This document shows positions 14,436-34,888 of a stretch of 36,273 nt of DNA, piece by piece. Numbering within the stretch: position 1 is the first letter of the stretch; every line of letters starts with the position of its first letter. Both the position numbers and the translations under genes were made by a program. The stretch lies in IMG/VR virus record IMGVR_UViG_3300031912_000001, one strand, 5' to 3'. The DNA comes from an uncultured virus (IMG/VR IMGVR_UViG_3300031912_000001) (lineage: Duplodnaviria > Heunggongvirae > Uroviricota > Caudoviricetes). The notes under the pieces were generated by a model, which saw nothing but the letters and a program-made list of their open reading frames with translations, had not been told where the DNA came from and searched no databases.

Positions 14436-15248
14436 ATGCAACATATCGTGATGTTTTCGGGTGGTATCGGGTCGTGGTGCGCCGCCAAACGCGTCGCCGA
14501 AACGTATGGCACCGAGCAGATGACGCTGTTGTTCGCCGACGTGAAGGGCGACACCGACGAGCCCCACGTCGGTGAGGACGAGGACACCTACCGGTTCCTT
14601 ACCGAGGCCGCCGCCAATGTCGGCGCGCCGCTGGTGCGCGTCGCCGACGGGCGCAACATTTGGCAGATCTTCCACGACAAGCGATACCTCGGTAACTCGA
14701 GGCAGGCCAACTGCAGCCATCTGCTCAAGCAGATGCCGTGCCGGCGGTGGATCGAAGCCAACTACCCCGACCCGAGCACCGCGACCATCTACGTCGGCAT
14801 CGACTGGTCCGAATATCACCGGCTGCCCGCCATCGAAGAAGGCCACCGGCCCTATGTGGCGAAGGCGCCGCTGTGCGACCCGCCGTATCTGGACAAGCGG
14901 CACATGCTGAACTGGTGCCGCTACGAGGGCATCAAACCGCCCCGCGCGTATGCGCTGGGGATGCCGCACAACAACTGCGGCGGCGGCTGCGTGCGCGCCG
15001 GCCAAGCCCAATTCGAGAAACTGCTCACGGTGATGCCCGAGCGTTACGCGGTGTGGGAAGCCAAGGAGCAGGAGCTGCGCGACTATCTCGGCAAGGACGT
15101 GGCGATCCTGCGGGACTGGGCCGGCGGCGGCGGACCCATCACCTTGAAGGAGTTTCGGGAACGCGTGCAGGTGCAGCCGTCGCTGTTCGACGAGTTCGAT
15201 TTCGGCGGCTGCGGCTGTTTCACCGCGTCCTTCGAGGAACCGTCCTGA
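14436..15248 (+). CDS. PAPS-reductase-like / PP-loop adenine-nucleotide alpha-hydrolase protein
   Basis: N-terminal MFSGGIGS PP-loop, EDEDTYRFL, CS..LK, HNNCGGGCVRAG, C-terminal GGCGCF. Confidence 0.8.
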   Translation: MQHIVMFSGGIGSWCAAKRVAETYGTEQMTLLFADVKGDTDEPHVGEDEDTYRFLTEAAANVGAPLVRVADGRNIWQIFHDKRYLGNSRQANCSHLLKQMPCRRWIEANYPDPSTATIYVGIDWSEYHRLPAIEEGHRPYVAKAPLCDPPYLDKRHMLNWCRYEGIKPPRAYALGMPHNNCGGGCVRAGQAQFEKLLTVMPERYAVWEAKEQELRDYLGKDVAILRDWAGGGGPITLKEFRERVQVQPSLFDEFDFGGCGCFTASFEEPS

Positions 15249-20507: not shown

Positions 20508-20586
20508 CGCCATGTTCGGTTTCTCGTGGGGGCTTCCATGCTACGCGGACGACCTGTCGGACCCATGTTTTACCGTTACCGTCATG
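20508..20586. repeat. Copy 2 of the ~80-bp divergent cassette
   Basis: See 18915-18999; flanked by inverted GGTAACGGCAAA / TTTACCGTTACC. Confidence 0.85.
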
Positions 20587-22506
20587 ACCACCGACACCCA
20601 CCAGACCACCCGCCCCTACGAAACCATCGACGTCCCCGAAGCCGGCCAGGACGACGCCCATTTCTTCAGTGTCACAACGATTCTGAAAGCCCTGTCCAGC
20701 CCGGCGCTGGAATACTGGGCGATCAAACGATGCGCCCAAGACGCTATCGACCGCCAGGCCACCTGGAACGCGATGCTGTCCGAAGAGGGCCCCGCCGAGA
20801 CGATCAAATGGCTGTGCAAAGCCCGCTACCGCAGCCCCAAACTCGAGCTCGCCAGCGAGAAACTGGGCACCGTCGTACACAAGGCATGCGAATACTATGC
20901 GCTGTCCGGGGAGAAACCCGACCGCGAATGGGTCGCCGACCTGGTCCGCGCTCACGGCGCCCCCACCATCGAGCTGGACTCCGAGGTCAACGTCGTCGGA
21001 CGGATGCTCAACCAGTTCGACGGCTGGCTGCAACGCTTCACCCCGGAGTACACGGCGGCCGAGATGCCGGTGTTCAACGAACGGTTCGGCTACGCGGGCA
21101 GCCTCGACGCGATTCTGACGATCGGCGGGGTGCGGCTGTTGACCGATTACAAAGGGTTAGATCTAACCACGCCACTGGCAACACCCGACGGTTGGACCAC
21201 AATGGGTGCGGTTCGGATCGGTGACCAGGTGTTCGGCATCGACGGCACGCCGGTGGTCGTCATCGCCAAATCTGACGTGCATCTCAACCGCTGCTACCGG
21301 GTCACGTTCGATGACACCACGTCGATCATCTGCGACGACGAACACCTGTGGCAGATCCGGTCGGGGTATCCGAACCATCCGGCACGCGCCGGTGCGGTAT
21401 TGCGGACCGATCAATTGGCCAACGAAGTCCGCAGCCGAGTAACCGGCCAGCATCATTGGCAGATCGTGATGCCTGAGCCGCTACAGCTACCGATGCAGAT
21501 GCTGCCTATCGATCCGTATGTCTATGGATGCTGGCTGGGTGACGGCTACCGCAACGGCGGAACCATCACGGGTATCGATAATGAGCTGTTCGACCTTATT
21601 CAGGCACGGGGTTATCACGTCGGCGAACCGCATGGCACCGATCCACACAAGACTGCGACCCGCAACGTGTTCGGATTACGCCGGCAGCTGCGCGCCGCCG
21701 GACTGCTAGGGCATCGGGAGATCCCGCAGATTTACCTCCGTGGCTCGATCGAACAGCGAATCGATCTGCTGCATGGATTGATGGATACCGACGGCTCATG
21801 GAATGCCACTCGAAACCAGGCGGTGCTGAGCACGGTTAATAAAGCGACGATGACCACTGTGTACGAGCTGGTCGTCAGTCTCGGTGAGCGGCCTTTGATT
21901 AACACCGTGCAGGGGCATGGGTTTGGCAAGGATCTCACCGTCTATCAGTTGACGTGGCATCCACGCCTGCATAATCCGTTCGCGTTGTCTCGTAAAGCCG
22001 ATCGGGTGCATCTTTCAAGAGGACGCGTATGGCGGCGGATGATCGTCGATATCGAACCCACCCTGACCGTACCCACACAATGCATCACGGTGGACGCCGA
22101 AGACGGCTGCTATCTCGCTGGCACGCAGATGATCCCTACGCACAACACGCGCCGCGAACCGCTGACCGCGAGGGGTGAGGTTCAAACACCGTATGGGGAA
22201 ACAGCTTTACAGCTCGCCGCGTATCGGCACGCTGAGCTCGCCGCCTACTTCCGGGCGCGGCGCGCCGAGAAGTATCAGCGTCGCTATTACTTACTCAGCC
22301 CCGACGAAAAGGGGATGGCCGCCAAGATGCCCGGGGTGGACGGCGGGTTGTGCATCATTCTGACGCCGCAGTCCTGCGAGGCATACCCGATCCGCTGCGA
22401 TCAGGAGGTGTTCGATTTCTTCTTGTACTGCTACGAGAGCTGGCGGTGGCTCGAGGATGTCAGCAAGCGCGTCATCGGCGACGCCCTGATCGCACCCTGC
22501 GAATAA
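20584..22506 (+). CDS. PD-(D/E)XK (Cas4/RecB-like) exonuclease interrupted by an intein
   Basis: SVTTIL, GTVVH, E...YAGSLD...DYK|T...LQLAAY motifs; start probably ATG 20584 (20512 possible). Confidence 0.9.
   Translation: MTTDTHQTTRPYETIDVPEAGQDDAHFFSVTTILKALSSPALEYWAIKRCAQDAIDRQATWNAMLSEEGPAETIKWLCKARYRSPKLELASEKLGTVVHKACEYYALSGEKPDREWVADLVRAHGAPTIELDSEVNVVGRMLNQFDGWLQRFTPEYTAAEMPVFNERFGYAGSLDAILTIGGVRLLTDYKGLDLTTPLATPDGWTTMGAVRIGDQVFGIDGTPVVVIAKSDVHLNRCYRVTFDDTTSIICDDEHLWQIRSGYPNHPARAGAVLRTDQLANEVRSRVTGQHHWQIVMPEPLQLPMQMLPIDPYVYGCWLGDGYRNGGTITGIDNELFDLIQARGYHVGEPHGTDPHKTATRNVFGLRRQLRAAGLLGHREIPQIYLRGSIEQRIDLLHGLMDTDGSWNATRNQAVLSTVNKATMTTVYELVVSLGERPLINTVQGHGFGKDLTVYQLTWHPRLHNPFALSRKADRVHLSRGRVWRRMIVDIEPTLTVPTQCITVDAEDGCYLAGTQMIPTHNTRREPLTARGEVQTPYGETALQLAAYRHAELAAYFRARRAEKYQRRYYLLSPDEKGMAAKMPGVDGGLCIILTPQSCEAYPIRCDQEVFDFFLYCYESWRWLEDVSKRVIGDALIAPCE
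21154..22146 (+). mobile_element. Class 3 intein with LAGLIDADG homing endonuclease (331 aa)
   Basis: Block A GLDLTTPLATPDGWTTMG, block B EHLW, LAGLIDADG-like GCWLGDG and GLMDTDG, block F TQCITV, block G PTHN followed by T(+1). Confidence 0.93.
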
Positions 22507-30305: not shown

Positions 30306-30454
30306 GTTTCATCGATGACATGGCGCAGTGGGCCAACTGCACCGAATGCGGACGGCCGCGTGAAAGACGCGCGCTCAACGCGGACGGGGTGTGCCCGTGG
30401 TGTCTGCTGACGGTGATCAAGGTGCCGCCCAATCCGCTACTGGAGGAGCAGTGA
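30302..30454 (+). CDS. Small Zn-finger protein
   Basis: GGAGG RBS; CTEC...CPWC. Confidence 0.65.
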   Translation: MSFIDDMAQWANCTECGRPRERRALNADGVCPWCLLTVIKVPPNPLLEEQ

Positions 30455-31134
30455 TGGGATTCGTCGAAGAGCAAGCCAACGCCTGGTCCGAAATCCACCA
30501 GCTGTTCAAGGACTCACGGCTGTTCGACCGGCCACTCGAGACACCCGACGGACCGGGCGCCACCGTGGAATCCACTGAGGCGCTGCGCGAGTGGCTGCCC
30601 AAACTATTTAGGAAATACAAAGTCACCACAATGCTCGACGCGGCGTGCGGGGACTGGAACTGGATGCGCCTGGTGGATCTCGGGGACATCGCGTACACGG
30701 GGTGGGATGTGGACGCCGAACGCATCCTGCGCGCCCAGTCTCATGTCGCCAGGGGTGAGGCCATCTGGAATCCGCACACCTGGTTCGAGGTGCGCAATCT
30801 GCTGACCGTCAAGACCGTTCCGCGGTTCGATCTGATTATGTGTCGGCATTTTCTTCAGCATCTGCCGGTCAACGATCTAGTCGAGTTCGTTCTCATGAAA
30901 TTCAGGCTCTCCGAGAGCCGCTATCTGCTGGTGACCACGTTTCCCGACGCGGACAACACCTTTGAGTGGGACCCGCGCGGTTCCGACCACGCGTGGACGG
31001 GCTATTTCGAGCGTCCCTACGACCTTTCGGCGCCACCGTTCGACATGGGTACGCCGTTGGAGTCGTTCAGCGAGCGGCTCGGGCCGGGCGGGATTCTGAC
31101 AGTGCCCCACGAGCTTGCGCTGTACCGGTTATGA
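30454..31134 (+). CDS. Class I SAM-dependent methyltransferase
   Basis: MLDAACGD motif I, YTGWDV motif II, DLIMCRHFLQHL. Confidence 0.88.
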   Translation: MGFVEEQANAWSEIHQLFKDSRLFDRPLETPDGPGATVESTEALREWLPKLFRKYKVTTMLDAACGDWNWMRLVDLGDIAYTGWDVDAERILRAQSHVARGEAIWNPHTWFEVRNLLTVKTVPRFDLIMCRHFLQHLPVNDLVEFVLMKFRLSESRYLLVTTFPDADNTFEWDPRGSDHAWTGYFERPYDLSAPPFDMGTPLESFSERLGPGGILTVPHELALYRL

Positions 31135-31749: not shown

Positions 31750-32138
31750 GGGTAGCCGGTGGCGGTCGCCGACAGCGCGCCGTCGCCGGCGAAAGGCACA
31801 TCGCTCGGTGTCGACAGCTCCGCGATCAGTGCCCCGAACCCGAACATGTTCGCCGCGCGCTGCGATATCGGCATCGGGTTCACCGCGGCCGCCAGAATCC
31901 CCTCGCTGCTCAATGCCGGCGACAGCGCCGTCGGCCCGACCGCGACCGCGCTCAACGCCCCCTGACCCGACAGCACCGGATACAGCACCGTCGGCCACAC
32001 CAGCGCCGACAAGATGCCCTCACCGCCGACCTGCGCCGGCAGCTGCGCGTAACGCAGCGGCGGCCCCGTCGGCTTGGTCGGCGTGTAATCAATGACACCG
32101 GGGACCCAGATGCTGAACGTCACAGGCGGGCGCGTCAT
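31746..32138 (-). CDS. Protein with repeated G.G.LSA motifs (virion-associated?)
   Basis: GGEGILSA, SGQGALSA, SSEGILAA, GFGALIA, AGDGALSA at ~20-aa spacing. Confidence 0.65.
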   Translation of the reverse strand: MTRPPVTFSIWVPGVIDYTPTKPTGPPLRYAQLPAQVGGEGILSALVWPTVLYPVLSGQGALSAVAVGPTALSPALSSEGILAAAVNPMPISQRAANMFGFGALIAELSTPSDVPFAGDGALSATATGYP

Positions 32139-32599
32139 TCGCCACCGTCCTGCTCACTCTCGGGGGCCGGGTCTACCCGATGCGCCCGGTAGGGAAGCTC
32201 GGGTTCGGCGGCCGGCTTCTCGAGCTCGTCGGGGTCGGGCAGCGGCGGCGGCTTCTTGCGCGCGCGTTTCTTCGGCTGCTTCTTCGCCTCCTCCTCGGCG
32301 CGGATTTTTTCGCGCCACGCCGCGACGCGGCGCACCATCGGCAGCCGGTCCTTGAGGATCAGCGCCCCGGCGGCCACCCACGCCAGCACCGCGTTGATCC
32401 ATTTCTCGGCGATCAGGTCGATACCGGGCATCGTGACGATCGTGTTGAGCAGCACCAGTGCGCCGGTGGTGATCGCCAGGATGAAGTTCCAATGCTCGGC
32501 CAGCCAATACGGCCGCGGCCCTTTCAGCGCGAACCAGCGCGGCAGCACATGGTTGCCGTTCAGCCCGTTGCCGTTGGGCTTAGCCGGCGGGGACACCAT
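32135..32599 (-). CDS. Putative holin (2 TM helices, charged C-tail)
   Basis: Directly downstream of lysB; two hydrophobic helices then a K/R/E-rich tail. Confidence 0.65.
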   Translation of the reverse strand: MVSPPAKPNGNGLNGNHVLPRWFALKGPRPYWLAEHWNFILAITTGALVLLNTIVTMPGIDLIAEKWINAVLAWVAAGALILKDRLPMVRRVAAWREKIRAEEEAKKQPKKRARKKPPPLPDPDELEKPAAEPELPYRAHRVDPAPESEQDGGE

Positions 32600-33524
32600 G
32601 ACTGGAGTGATCGCGGACGTGCTGAATCCCCAACGCCACGTACGTCATCCCGGGCAGCGCCTCACGGATGTGGTATTCGATGTGCGGCGCGGTGGGGGGC
32701 TGCCAGCAGATGAACTGGATACCCAGGACAGCGGCCTGGATCGCCGCGGCGATGCCCTTCACCGACAGCTTGTCACCCAGCGGCATGATCAGCTTCTCCA
32801 TCGGGAAGATGGTGGCCTGGCTCAGGTCGATGTTGTGGCGCTCCACCCCGCGCAGCATGTCGTCGTAGGCGTCCCCGTCGAGGTTCTGGATCACCTCCAG
32901 GCAATTGCCGGCCAGATCGATCGCGAACTGCCCGAAGTCGTGCAGCTGCAGCTCGGTGCAGCACGTATACACATCCCGCATGATCTCGCCGGTCAAAGTG
33001 GGCGGGACGCCGCCGTACATGTCATAGGTGTCGACCAGCTCGCACCACTCGAAGCCCATCTGCGGCAGCCGGAACTGGGCGATGCCCTCCCCGTCGGTCA
33101 GTGGCCCCAGGTAGAACGTGTGCTCGAGATGGCGGCTGGGGTTGCCGAAACAGATGCCGCCCAGGAACTTCGAACGCAGCTGCGTCAACCGGCCGCCTTC
33201 GAACTCCATCCGGTAGCGTGACGCGGCCTCCCCACCCTGGCTGTAACCGCCGGTGATGATCCGCCGATCAGGATTGGCCAGCGTCCAGTCCACAGCCCAG
33301 TCCACGGCCATGTGGACTGATTCCTGGTAGGAGGGCGCCGTGATCTGGCCCGGGGGGATAGGGCCGAACGACCACGGCGCCTGCACGGGGATCTCCTCGA
33401 CCACGTCTGCGCAGCCGTGCGCCACATCGGAGGGGTAGCCGGTGCCCGGCGCGGCCCAGGTGCCGGCGAACGTCAGGTAGGCGGGCGGCTCTTCACCACC
33501 GCCGCCGTCAGGCGGGATAAAGGG
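32580..33524 (-). CDS. lysB: Lysin B (mycolylarabinogalactan esterase, cutinase-like); frame lacks a start codon upstream of the conserved first strand
   Basis: GYSQG nucleophile, FGNP motif, D(MY) and PHIEY; upstream in-frame LTFAGTWAAPGTGYPSDVA; frame is open from 33527. Confidence 0.88.
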   Translation of the reverse strand, partial: PFIPPDGGGGEEPPAYLTFAGTWAAPGTGYPSDVAHGCADVVEEIPVQAPWSFGPIPPGQITAPSYQESVHMAVDWAVDWTLANPDRRIITGGYSQGGEAASRYRMEFEGGRLTQLRSKFLGGICFGNPSRHLEHTFYLGPLTDGEGIAQFRLPQMGFEWCELVDTYDMYGGVPPTLTGEIMRDVYTCCTELQLHDFGQFAIDLAGNCLEVIQNLDGDAYDDMLRGVERHNIDLSQATIFPMEKLIMPLGDKLSVKGIAAAIQAAVLGIQFICWQPPTAPHIEYHIREALPGMTYVALGIQHVRDHSSHGVPAG

Positions 33525-34888
33525 GGCTCACCACCCTCCAGGGTCGCCTTAATGTGCGCGATCGCGTCGGTGAGCGTGCGGTTGCCGAGCTGCGCCCAGC
33601 CGTGCCGGACCCCGTCGGACCCCTTTGGCCCGGCGAGTTGATCCAGGGTCAGGGCGGGGTAGTCCAGCGCCGTCTGCGGCCCGACCGACGGCTGCTCCTC
33701 GATCGCCGGGGCCTCCCGGTTCTCGACCATCGCGAGGATCTTGCCGACGGCGTCCACGACGTAGAGGTACTGGCCGTGCTCGTTGGTGCCCAGCTGCGGC
33801 CATCCGGTGCCATATCCGGTCTCGACGTTGACCGGCCCGCACAGCTGCTCATAGTTCTGCTTGCCGATATCGTCCACAATCTCTGCCTCCTCCGGTGGGG
33901 TGAGCGCGCTGTAGGTGTAGCCCTTCGGCGGGATCAGCGTCGCGACCTGATCGAACGCGCACCAGTACCCATACGGCGAAAACCCGCTATCGGCGATCCA
34001 CACCGCCCGCAATGAGGGGTCGGAGTCGTAACCCATAGCGGCGACATAGTGGTAGACGGTCCCACCGCCGTAGGCCGGTGACGTAGATCCCTTCACGCCG
34101 CGCGGATAGTTCGACGGCGGCGCAACCCAGTTGCAGACCACACCCCAGCCGCAGTCGATGCTGTTGACCAGGTGATCCCACAAATCCTCCTTCTGCTCCG
34201 GTGTCGGCGGATCGATGTGCAGATAAACCTCCGCGAACTGGGCATCGGGCACGTAGCGGTCCAGGGTGTCCTCGATCAGCCCGACATGATCGGTGCCGCC
34301 CTCGTCAGTGCCCATGCTGTTGGCGAGCTCCTGCTCGGACACGATGATCCCGGCGCTGTTGAGCACGATCTGCGTCGACGCCGGGCCGCAGTTGAAATAC
34401 GTTTCCTGGACCACGATGCCACGGTCGTACGGCAGCATTTTCTCCACTGGCGGCTCTCCTGTCGCTTGGCCCTTCAGACGGTGATAGATGTCGCATGCCT
34501 CCGGGTAACGCTCGTCATACCTGTCCGGGTAGGCGCTCTGCTGAACCTGCTGTGCGTACCAGCCAGGGGAGTGAGCATCACTGTTGTAATCCTGCTTTAT
34601 CAGCTCCGCGAAGAACATTTCGGCGGAAGGTTCCACGTGCATCCGGTCGTAACACGTGCCCCACCAGGGGTGACGCTGCTGAAAGACACCGACACTGTTG
34701 GCATCCGATCCGATGGCATCGTGGGGATAGTTAAGACTTTCAGGGTCGGCGTGGTTGGCGTACATGACGAGATTGGTTTCGACAAGCCCGGTTGATATTG
34801 CAATGCAGATCCCTTTCTCGGTGACGCCCCGGCGCTCACCCTCCGCGATGATGCCCAGCGCGATCGAGTCCGGCGTGTAGTGCGGCAC
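33473..34888 (-). CDS. lysA: Lysin A endolysin: lysozyme/transglycosylase-like domain + C39-like Cys peptidase + two GW.QLG cell-wall-binding repeats
   Basis: LVET...SVGVFQQR...WWG...AQQVQQSAYPDRY; QET..NCGPAS...HYVA..GY...IADS; GWPQLG and GWAQLG. Confidence 0.9.
   Translation of the reverse strand: MPHYTPDSIALGIIAEGERRGVTEKGICIAISTGLVETNLVMYANHADPESLNYPHDAIGSDANSVGVFQQRHPWWGTCYDRMHVEPSAEMFFAELIKQDYNSDAHSPGWYAQQVQQSAYPDRYDERYPEACDIYHRLKGQATGEPPVEKMLPYDRGIVVQETYFNCGPASTQIVLNSAGIIVSEQELANSMGTDEGGTDHVGLIEDTLDRYVPDAQFAEVYLHIDPPTPEQKEDLWDHLVNSIDCGWGVVCNWVAPPSNYPRGVKGSTSPAYGGGTVYHYVAAMGYDSDPSLRAVWIADSGFSPYGYWCAFDQVATLIPPKGYTYSALTPPEEAEIVDDIGKQNYEQLCGPVNVETGYGTGWPQLGTNEHGQYLYVVDAVGKILAMVENREAPAIEEQPSVGPQTALDYPALTLDQLAGPKGSDGVRHGWAQLGNRTLTDAIAHIKATLEGGEPPLSRLTAAVVKSRPPT
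33518..33539 (-). promoter_or_regulatory. Candidate programmed -1 frameshift signal (GGAGG-10 nt-C CCT TTA)
   Basis: X XXY YYZ heptamer in the lysA phase; the -1 frame is lysB. Confidence 0.65.

Follow-up and report, generated by a model that had tools for sequence, protein, structure and literature searches.

How does a phage make its lysin B when no start codon precedes the first core strand of the enzyme? The question is raised by a stretch of 36,273 nucleotides (nt) from an uncultured virus of the Caudoviricetes (IMG/VR record IMGVR_UViG_3300031912_000001), hereafter the window, in which the end of the endolysin gene lysA overlaps an open reading frame (ORF) for lysin B (lysB) that lies in the −1 frame. 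No single uninterrupted ORF covers both enzymes in the window, and a LysA-LysB architecture would be reached only via a −1 shift. From the anatomy of this junction and of the corresponding junctions in relatives, we consider it likely that programmed −1 ribosomal frameshifting near the lysA 3' end yields a LysA-LysB fusion of 769 amino acids (aa).

The lysA/lysB junction of the window

The product of lysA has a lysin domain on its N-terminal side, followed by a cysteine peptidase domain resembling C39 (residues 160-301, Pfam Peptidase_C39_2, E 2.8e-11) and by two C-terminal repeats, seen in the translation as ..YEQLCGP..GYGTGWPQLG.. and ..LDQLAGP..GVRHGWAQLG.. respectively. Compared with PHROG, it matches the endolysin families 1519 (E 1e-108), 6007 and 700. 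The 3' end of the gene reads CTG GAG GGT GGT GAG CCC CCT TTA TCC CGC CTG ACG ... ACC TGA (coordinates of all features are collected in Table 1).

Directly 5' of the run of C and T in this sequence a TGA shuts the −1 (lysB) frame. From 33527 this frame is open, with no stop until 32583, and reads APFIPPDGGGGEEPPAYLTFAGTWAAPGTGYPSDVAHG; the overlap of the two genes is thus 33527..33473, the downstream ORF being in the −1 frame. The overlap contains the heptamer C CCT TTA, which is of the X XXY YYZ type and in the phase of lysA, and which we propose as the −1 site. No ATG, GTG or TTG occurs in the lysB frame between 33527 and the strand LTFAGTW. Past the heptamer the −1 frame encodes a linker with 57% Pro+Gly, vs 14% in the lysA frame. 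An earlier note on this DNA, made from the letters alone, had described the end of lysA, the TGA at 33530-33528, the opening of the frame at 33527, a first start GTG at 33425, the phase of the heptamer, the spacing of a GGAGG upstream of it and two hairpins downstream; all of these hold when the sequence, the ORFs, the translation and the RNA fold are inspected.

The TTA of the heptamer is the sole TTA in lysA and lysB (0 among the 52 other Leu codons), and CCT represents 10% of the Pro codons of both genes. The chance of finding some X XXY YYZ in the overlap is about 7% (~18 codon positions x 1/256, for uniform bases). The 9-mer CCCCCTTTH is present in one copy in the 36-kb window, at the junction, for 0.34 expected, and at least one copy is obtained in 31 of 100 shuffles. 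For the window alone, the junction stands above chance only weakly. It does stand above chance because the same CCC CCT TTN, with the same phase and position, is found in 14 of 14 distinct relatives (the window counted), as described below.

The −1 frame encodes lysin B

By homology and predicted fold the −1 ORF is lysin B, with a predicted role as mycolyl-arabinogalactan esterase. A tblastn search with LysB retrieved 1148 phage records, almost all of them Mycobacterium phages annotated lysin B; among the 40 best of the 1148 matches all are annotated lysin B or endolysin, the top one being phage CELFI (45.7% identity). LysB falls in PHROG 102 (E 1.2e-66, residues 13-309 of the extended ORF). 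Its nucleophile motif GYSQG (G-x-S-x-G) is invariant in 19 aligned sequences, i.e. Y95, S96, Q97 and G98 do not vary. The AlphaFold model made from this 19-sequence alignment has a mean predicted local distance difference test score (pLDDT) of 72.3, and the top Foldseek match to it is 3HC7, the lysin B of D29 (E 3.2e-07), followed by MSMEG_6394, Rv3802c and cutinases. When the PDB was searched by the LysB sequence, only a lipase was found (8yzn, E 2e-4) and D29 LysB was not recovered. A Pfam scan of the window LysB gave only a sub-threshold Cutinase match, with a Pfam copy that may be without PF27131. Megablast of the region against 50,697 GenBank phage records gave no match. There is no close isolated phage, the highest protein identity being that of CELFI.

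The tblastn alignments with phage lysin B start at residue 16-18 of the extended ORF. In the model, strand 1 corresponds to residues 16-20 (AYLTF; pLDDT of the block 87) and helix 1 to residues 30-38, and residues 1-10 are disordered. Separate lysB genes begin 1-4 codons ahead of strand 1, e.g. in prophi62-1 and in the contig L037. The first canonical start in the lysB frame of the window, the GTG at 33425, encodes V35. Starting there would cut strand 1, the loop that follows and part of helix 1, and we agree with the earlier note that this GTG is not the real start of LysB. The GTG within GGTGAGC was likewise rejected: it is in the third frame, which meets a stop after 7 codons.

Frame offset and heptamer are conserved in relatives

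Relatives were collected by searches of IMG/VR and of JGI metagenome contigs. They provide, with the window, 14 distinct junction sequences, for which LysB identity to the window is 56-73% and the G+C content of the locus 46-69%. Twelve have lysB in the −1 frame: the window (=L007), L006, L008, L009 (=L021), L010, L011 (=L012), L013, L017 (=L018), L019, L023, L024 and L025. The two others, L004 and L005, are in frame.

For the relatives that are not fused the offset is −1 in 12 of 12 and +1 in none. CCC CCT TT(A/C/T) is present at the junction, in the same lysA phase, in all 14 distinct loci; CCT accounts for 0-23% of the Pro codons in the genes of these loci. The flanks within the linker are diverged and not alignable. 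Between the heptamer and the LTFAGTW strand there are 33-93 nt, and the stop of the lysA frame is found 22-148 nt past the heptamer. The TGA that shuts the lysB frame 5' of the run occupies the same position in nine of the −1 loci (not in L017, L019 and L025), within a GTGAGCC context that reads GGTGAGCC in eight loci and AGTGAGCC in L011.

A canonical lysB start upstream of strand 1 is missing in 11 of the 12 −1 loci, L017 being the exception. The lysB ORF is intact in all 12, with a mean column identity of 79% in alignment A1 and 56% in alignment A2. Reading on from the heptamer in the pooled 12 loci, Pro+Gly reaches 57% in the −1 frame (n=227) vs 16% in the lysA frame. Linkers of in-frame fusions have a similar content, 52% (n=260).

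A scan of genome contigs with LysB gave 66 pattern matches, 0 of them confirmed. A further scan of viral contigs with the fusion alignment A3 gave 47 loci. The LysB motif is present in seven, all duplicates of known loci; among the other 40 (L036-L072, L074-L076) only L037 was inspected, by hand, and it has ordinary separate lysA and lysB genes with an ATG start.

In-frame LysA-LysB fusions

In L004 one ORF of 822 aa, and in L005 one of 771 aa, runs in frame through both enzymes. A database of 5.8 billion proteins, in a search limited to longer proteins, contains 11 in-frame LysA(C39)-LysB proteins (P0001-P0011) of 771-852 aa. They are 48-69% identical to the window LysB and carry precomputed Pfam PF13529 (C39_2) and PF27131; the latter lies on the LysB part of these database relatives. 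This count is skewed to in-frame forms, because gene callers cannot report −1 fusions. In P0006 the linker LEGGTPPPFIPPPEGGG is comparable to the shifted reading of the window, LEGGEPP(L/F)IPPDGGGG, and the junction LEGGTPPPFIPPPEGGGQPADRHALLTFSGTW aligns with LEGGEPP(L/F)IPPDGGGGEEPPAYLTFAGTW of that same reading.

A quick IQ-TREE tree was made of 33 LysB domains, without duplicates, the partial loci L014 and L015, and P0011, which a length filter had removed. On it the 12 rows of the −1 type and the 11 in-frame rows form one clade (Shimodaira-Hasegawa-like approximate likelihood ratio test, 97), apart from the LysBs of separate genes. At least three changes between the −1 and the in-frame states are required on this tree: L025 (−1) is nested among in-frame proteins and L019 (−1) is sister to the in-frame P0001, L004 and L005. 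On this tree the two states behave as interchangeable, as would be expected if both deliver the fusion. A second type of in-frame fusion is represented by P0012 and P0013 (568 and 586 aa), in which LysB directly follows another N-terminal domain, of ~290 aa and without a recorded Pfam domain; both group with separate-gene LysBs on the tree.

The heptamer is kept in the two in-frame loci, as C CCT TTT in L004 (2955-2975) and C CCT TTC in L005 (2958-2978). Their −1 frame stops two codons past it, at a TGA in L004 and a TAA in L005, despite the Asp/Asn difference at that place. A −1 slip in L004 or L005 would thus free LysA, the mirror image of the window. The earlier note had held that relatives with one extra base would speak against recoding. 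Such relatives exist in the literal sense, L004 and L005, but they are different lineages; they show that the fusion is the functional product, and not that the window is misassembled.

We mention with due reserve a wider reading, which is possible though rather doubtful. The heptamer may be a two-way switch that sets the ratio of LysA to LysA-LysB across this clade of soil actinophages. Slipping would make the fusion in the −1 lineages, where LysB would exist only as fusion, and free LysA in the in-frame lineages; 1-nt indels would flip the setting, at least three times on the tree, inverting the major product each time.

Proposed mechanism and products

The central claim of the earlier note, a −1 slip at C CCT TTA giving a LysA-LysB fusion, finds support in the 12 lineages of the same layout, 11 of them without a canonical lysB start, in the in-frame fusions of sister lineages and of the protein database with homologous linkers, in the interleaved tree, in the modelled strand 1 upstream of V35 and in the class of the heptamer, which is slippery in E. 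coli. We propose that ribosomes translating lysA reach CCC CCU UUA and that a fraction of them would slip back by one base. This could occur by tandem slippage of both tRNAs (CCU to CCC, UUA or UUC to UUU). Alternatively, with the rare UUA in the A site, only the P-site tRNA-Pro could slip, and Phe would then be decoded. The residue at the junction, Leu for tandem slippage and Phe for slippage in the P site only, would tell the two routes apart.

Slipped ribosomes would read the Pro/Gly linker and then the esterase domain of LysB, giving a fusion of 769 aa and 83.9 kDa, values that agree with the ~770 aa and ~84 kDa first put forward. Those that do not slip would terminate 14 codons on and release free LysA of 471 aa. 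The fusion is probably the sole form of LysB made, because LysB lacks a start codon ahead of its first core strand. That the fusion would be a minority product, as the earlier note had it, was a guess and is not supported. A possible benefit is that the esterase would gain the C-terminal repeats of LysA and its export route, and that the ratio of the products would be fixed. According to Sharma et al. 2014 (PMC4066793), C_CC.U_UU.A promotes more than 0.10% frameshifting in E. coli without stimulators and is under-represented in genes, and C_CC.U_UU.C promotes high-level frameshifting.

Points against frameshifting and alternative explanations

Several points weigh against programmed frameshifting, notably those that concern stimulators. 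The GGAGG ending 10 nt before the heptamer, for which the earlier note had assumed a stimulatory role, is present in the window only and not in relatives, and was rejected as a conserved stimulator. Comparison of the junctions of homologues thus bears out the heptamer and the −1 offset but not this element. In all 14 loci the 24 nt upstream rank among the best 1.6-17% of blocks (median 7%) for pairing with an assumed anti-Shine-Dalgarno (SD) tail, at a spacing of 3-15 nt; this enrichment is weak and confounded by Gly-Gly-Glu codons. The fold 3' of the heptamer in the window has a minimum free energy of −20.9 kcal/mol, and these 60 nt fold no better than dinucleotide-preserving shuffles (z +0.34; 124 of 200 shuffles as good). 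Across the 14 loci z goes from +1.23 to −3.59 and only L010, L013 and L011 fold clearly better than shuffles (z −3.6, −2.6 and −2.0 respectively). A 3' RNA structure as general conserved stimulator, the other role proposed at first, is not supported by these z-scores (clear in 3 of 14 loci).

Past the heptamer, the sub-clade of L008, L010, L011 and L013 has tandem RPPGG-coding repeats (GACCGCCAGGYGG-like). This lineage may carry a structured stimulator, three of its four loci folding better than shuffles.

The other points against frameshifting concern the sample and one relative. The 14 junction sequences are all metagenome assemblies and share descent, so they are not 14 independent events. 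In the nearest relative of the window on the tree, L017 (L017:2574-2610), CCCCCCTTTA is retained in phase. A TTG located four codons ahead of the strand overlaps its lysA stop as TTGA, and L017 may also start LysB independently; the window has an analogous CTGA overlap. The anatomy, its conservation and the in-frame fusions of relatives are observations made directly on the sequences; slipping, its efficiency and its benefit we infer, for a phage that is uncultured.

Four other explanations were considered, which even jointly we regard as unlikely. The genes could be split: a 1-nt deletion would have broken an ancestral fusion, LysB alone would be made by reinitiation at a near-cognate codon on the lysA stop (CTG-A, 33476-33473), and the heptamer would be a relic of Pro-Pro-Phe/Leu coding. 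The lysA stop does overlap the Leu-Thr codons of strand 1 in 5 of 12 loci (window, L006, L019, L024 and L025), L017 offers a true TTG at such an overlap, and the separate lysB genes of Mycobacterium prophages start 1-4 codons before the strand, some with ATGA overlaps. But in six of the 12 loci the lysA-frame stop is 106-148 nt past the heptamer, 52-73 nt beyond the start of the strand, which would be lost; and the Leu codon of the strand is CTC in six loci and CTA in two, i.e. the near-cognate start is not conserved. Reinitiation also leaves unexplained the invariance of CCC CCT TTN at synonymous sites across 46-69% G+C, the constant −1 offset with a lysB frame open back to the heptamer, and the fusion-type Pro/Gly linker encoded in that stretch. 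We therefore consider it improbable. RNA polymerase slippage on C5 or T3 would have the same outcome as ribosomal frameshifting, since some transcripts would gain an extra base and their ordinary translation would make the fusion a subset of the products, and the site is indeed made of two homopolymer runs. However, known productive sites of transcriptional slippage are runs of ~7-9 or more A or T and those at the junction are short; in addition, the heptamer strictly keeps its codon phase in all 14 loci, which matters for the ribosome and not for the polymerase. This explanation appears very improbable.

An error of sequencing or assembly in the homopolymers would mean that the true run is T4 and not T3, making the gene an in-frame fusion, or C4 and not C5, in which case a separate lysB would start with the GTG within GGTGAGC. 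The change of frame does fall within the C5T3 run, and L004 is C5T4 and in frame. The stronger argument against an error is that 12 distinct sequences, from varied contigs and G+C classes, all have the −1 state with C5T3. The lysA-lysB stretch of the window (32580-34888) was also looked for in soils. All sampled words (100%) are present in 18 soil metagenome runs representing 15 coded samples, therefore the phage or prophage is widespread in that soil set. The Logan contigs of three runs from different coded samples, separately assembled, each cover it completely (0 differences, 0 gaps; word depth 13.6-22.7); these three runs may stem from a single campaign, or the source sample may be among them. 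A second record, L007, shows no difference from the window over 3941 nt, though the two are perhaps not independent. An assembly error is unlikely on these data, and we give it almost no credence. Hardly more credible is decay, in which lysB would be a frameshifted pseudogene of a degenerating or defective phage. The start codon is missing, as decay would have it, and the frame is broken relative to the in-frame relatives; but in all 12 −1 lineages lysB remains an intact, conserved ORF of ~300 codons (identity down to 56%), its catalytic GYSQG does not vary, and the sequence is complete in the 18 soil runs. No RNA run is listed among those that contain the stretch; the run X19, labelled metatranscriptomic but probably DNA, contains three pieces of lysA, none of them over the junction.

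The lysis cassette and other genes of the window

The order of genes is lysA, lysB and an ORF of 154 aa with hydrophobic segments. From its position and its hydrophobic stretches the latter is a holin-like candidate that would complete the lysis cassette; a PHROG search with it gave no match. With this content, i.e. lysA, lysB and the 154-aa ORF, the region is therefore a phage lysis cassette. The remainder of the window contains phage replication-type genes, including those of the Ku-like and PAPS-reductase-like proteins (Table 1). The 664-aa protein listed in Table 1 has a P-loop region (residues 212-546) with matches to PHROGs of the terminase-large, primase and helicase-loader kinds; this enzyme probably acts in replication or recombination and not as a terminase.

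Table 1. Position of the features of the lysA/lysB region and of other genes in the window.
Feature	Position	Strand	Basis or remark
lysA, zero frame, GTG start, 471 aa, 51.5 kDa	33473..34888	minus	ORF list; computed mass
GGAGG, Shine-Dalgarno-like, ends 10 nt before the heptamer	33535..33539	minus	sequence
TGA shutting the −1 (lysB) frame, directly 5' of the slippery run	33528..33530	minus	window context GTGAGCC
Slippery heptamer C CCT TTA (X XXY YYZ), lysA phase, proposed −1 site	33518..33524	minus	
Two predicted RNA hairpins 3' of the heptamer: CCGCC-UGAC-GGCGG (33515-33502) and 33500-33484	33484..33515	minus	minimum-energy fold
Pro/Gly-rich linker in the −1 frame past the slip, IPPDGGGGEEPPAY	33477..33518	minus	translation
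lysA stop TGA	33475-33473	minus	
LysB catalytic domain (cutinase-like alpha/beta hydrolase), −1 frame, from LTFAGTW to the stop 32582-32580	32580..33476	minus	
GTG, first canonical start in the lysB frame, encodes V35	33423..33425	minus	rejected as true start
Candidate holin-like ORF, 154 aa, hydrophobic segments, overlaps the lysB end by 20 nt	32135..32599	minus	ORF list
Ku-like DNA end-binding protein	530-1366	plus	PHROG 4873, E 4e-71
PAPS-reductase-like protein	14436-15248	plus	PHROG 424, E 3e-52
664-aa protein	20512-22506	plus	exonuclease-like match at residues 25-214
Methyltransferase	30391-31134	plus	PHROG 3382, E 5e-41

Relation to known systems

In tailed phages, tail assembly chaperones are the textbook case of programmed frameshifting, which is also known for a few capsid genes. 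The −1 frameshift of the G/GT type (lambda G/GT) in tail assembly chaperones is reportedly conserved in tailed phages, as Xu, Hendrix and Duda are said to have found in 2004. The junction of the window resembles it: a pair of late phage genes, a downstream −1 ORF without its own start, an X XXY YYZ at the end of the upstream ORF and, as proposed here, a short protein and a C-terminally extended fusion in a ratio set by translation. It differs in that the proteins are lysis enzymes and not virion assembly chaperones, in the heptamer, C CCU UUA/C, and in that both modules are found simply fused in frame in sister lineages.

In dnaX of E. coli one gene yields two products, tau and gamma, through −1 slippage on a heptamer, classically stimulated by an SD-like element upstream and a hairpin on the 3' side. 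We propose −1 slippage with two products for the window as well, but the slip in dnaX leads to the shorter product and that of the window would lead to the longer one, and neither the SD at −10 nor a strong hairpin is conserved at loci of the window type. The case resembling dnaX would be that of the in-frame L004 and L005, with a −1 stop two codons past the heptamer.

Overlapping ORFs fused by −1 slippage, on X XXZ ZZN, are described for the OrfA/OrfAB transposases of the IS3 family of insertion sequences (IS) in PMC13313380. The window has the same arrangement of overlapping ORFs that would be joined by a −1 slip, and the C_CC.U_UU.N class is slippery in E. coli (PMC4066793). Unlike phage lysis, IS3 slippage concerns the transposase of a mobile element, and it typically involves a strong pseudoknot or hairpin.

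Two lysin products from one lysis gene region of an actinobacteriophage, by a translational device, are reported from mycobacteriophage Ms6, whose lysA has a second endolysin embedded in frame (PMC3111421). The device in Ms6 is an internal in-frame start, whereas in the window a frameshift would link a peptidoglycan hydrolase and a mycolyl-arabinogalactan esterase. Some LysBs bear their own N-terminal peptidoglycan-binding domain, as reported for that of Ms6 (PMC8309991; PMC13578437), and the LysB of CELFI has a long N-terminal extension. The fusion proposed here would likewise have a wall-directed module on the N-terminal side of the esterase domain. Unlike in these LysBs, which have a lysB with its own start, this module would be full-length LysA, C-terminal repeats included, attached by recoding.

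In agreement with the earlier note, no recoded lysis cassette was found in the open-access and bioRxiv literature, a coverage that does not extend to subscription journals, and no natural LysA-LysB fusion was found there either. Passages of related papers give only frameshifts of tail chaperones and IS, and engineered fusions (PMC12859696, PMC5764923, PMC13313380, PMC5506516, PMC9671378). The junction of the window would represent a known mechanism in a new functional setting, together with a natural bifunctional lysin architecture not described in the literature covered.

If this is true, the site is an instance of recoding that annotation pipelines miss, a gene caller giving a LysB of 281 aa without its first strand. 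Phages of mycolic-acid bacteria could then deliver the esterase of the outer layer tethered to the peptidoglycan hydrolase, which bears on how LysB reaches its substrate. The −1 and in-frame fusions would also offer natural designs for bifunctional anti-mycobacterial lysins, with linkers tested by evolution.

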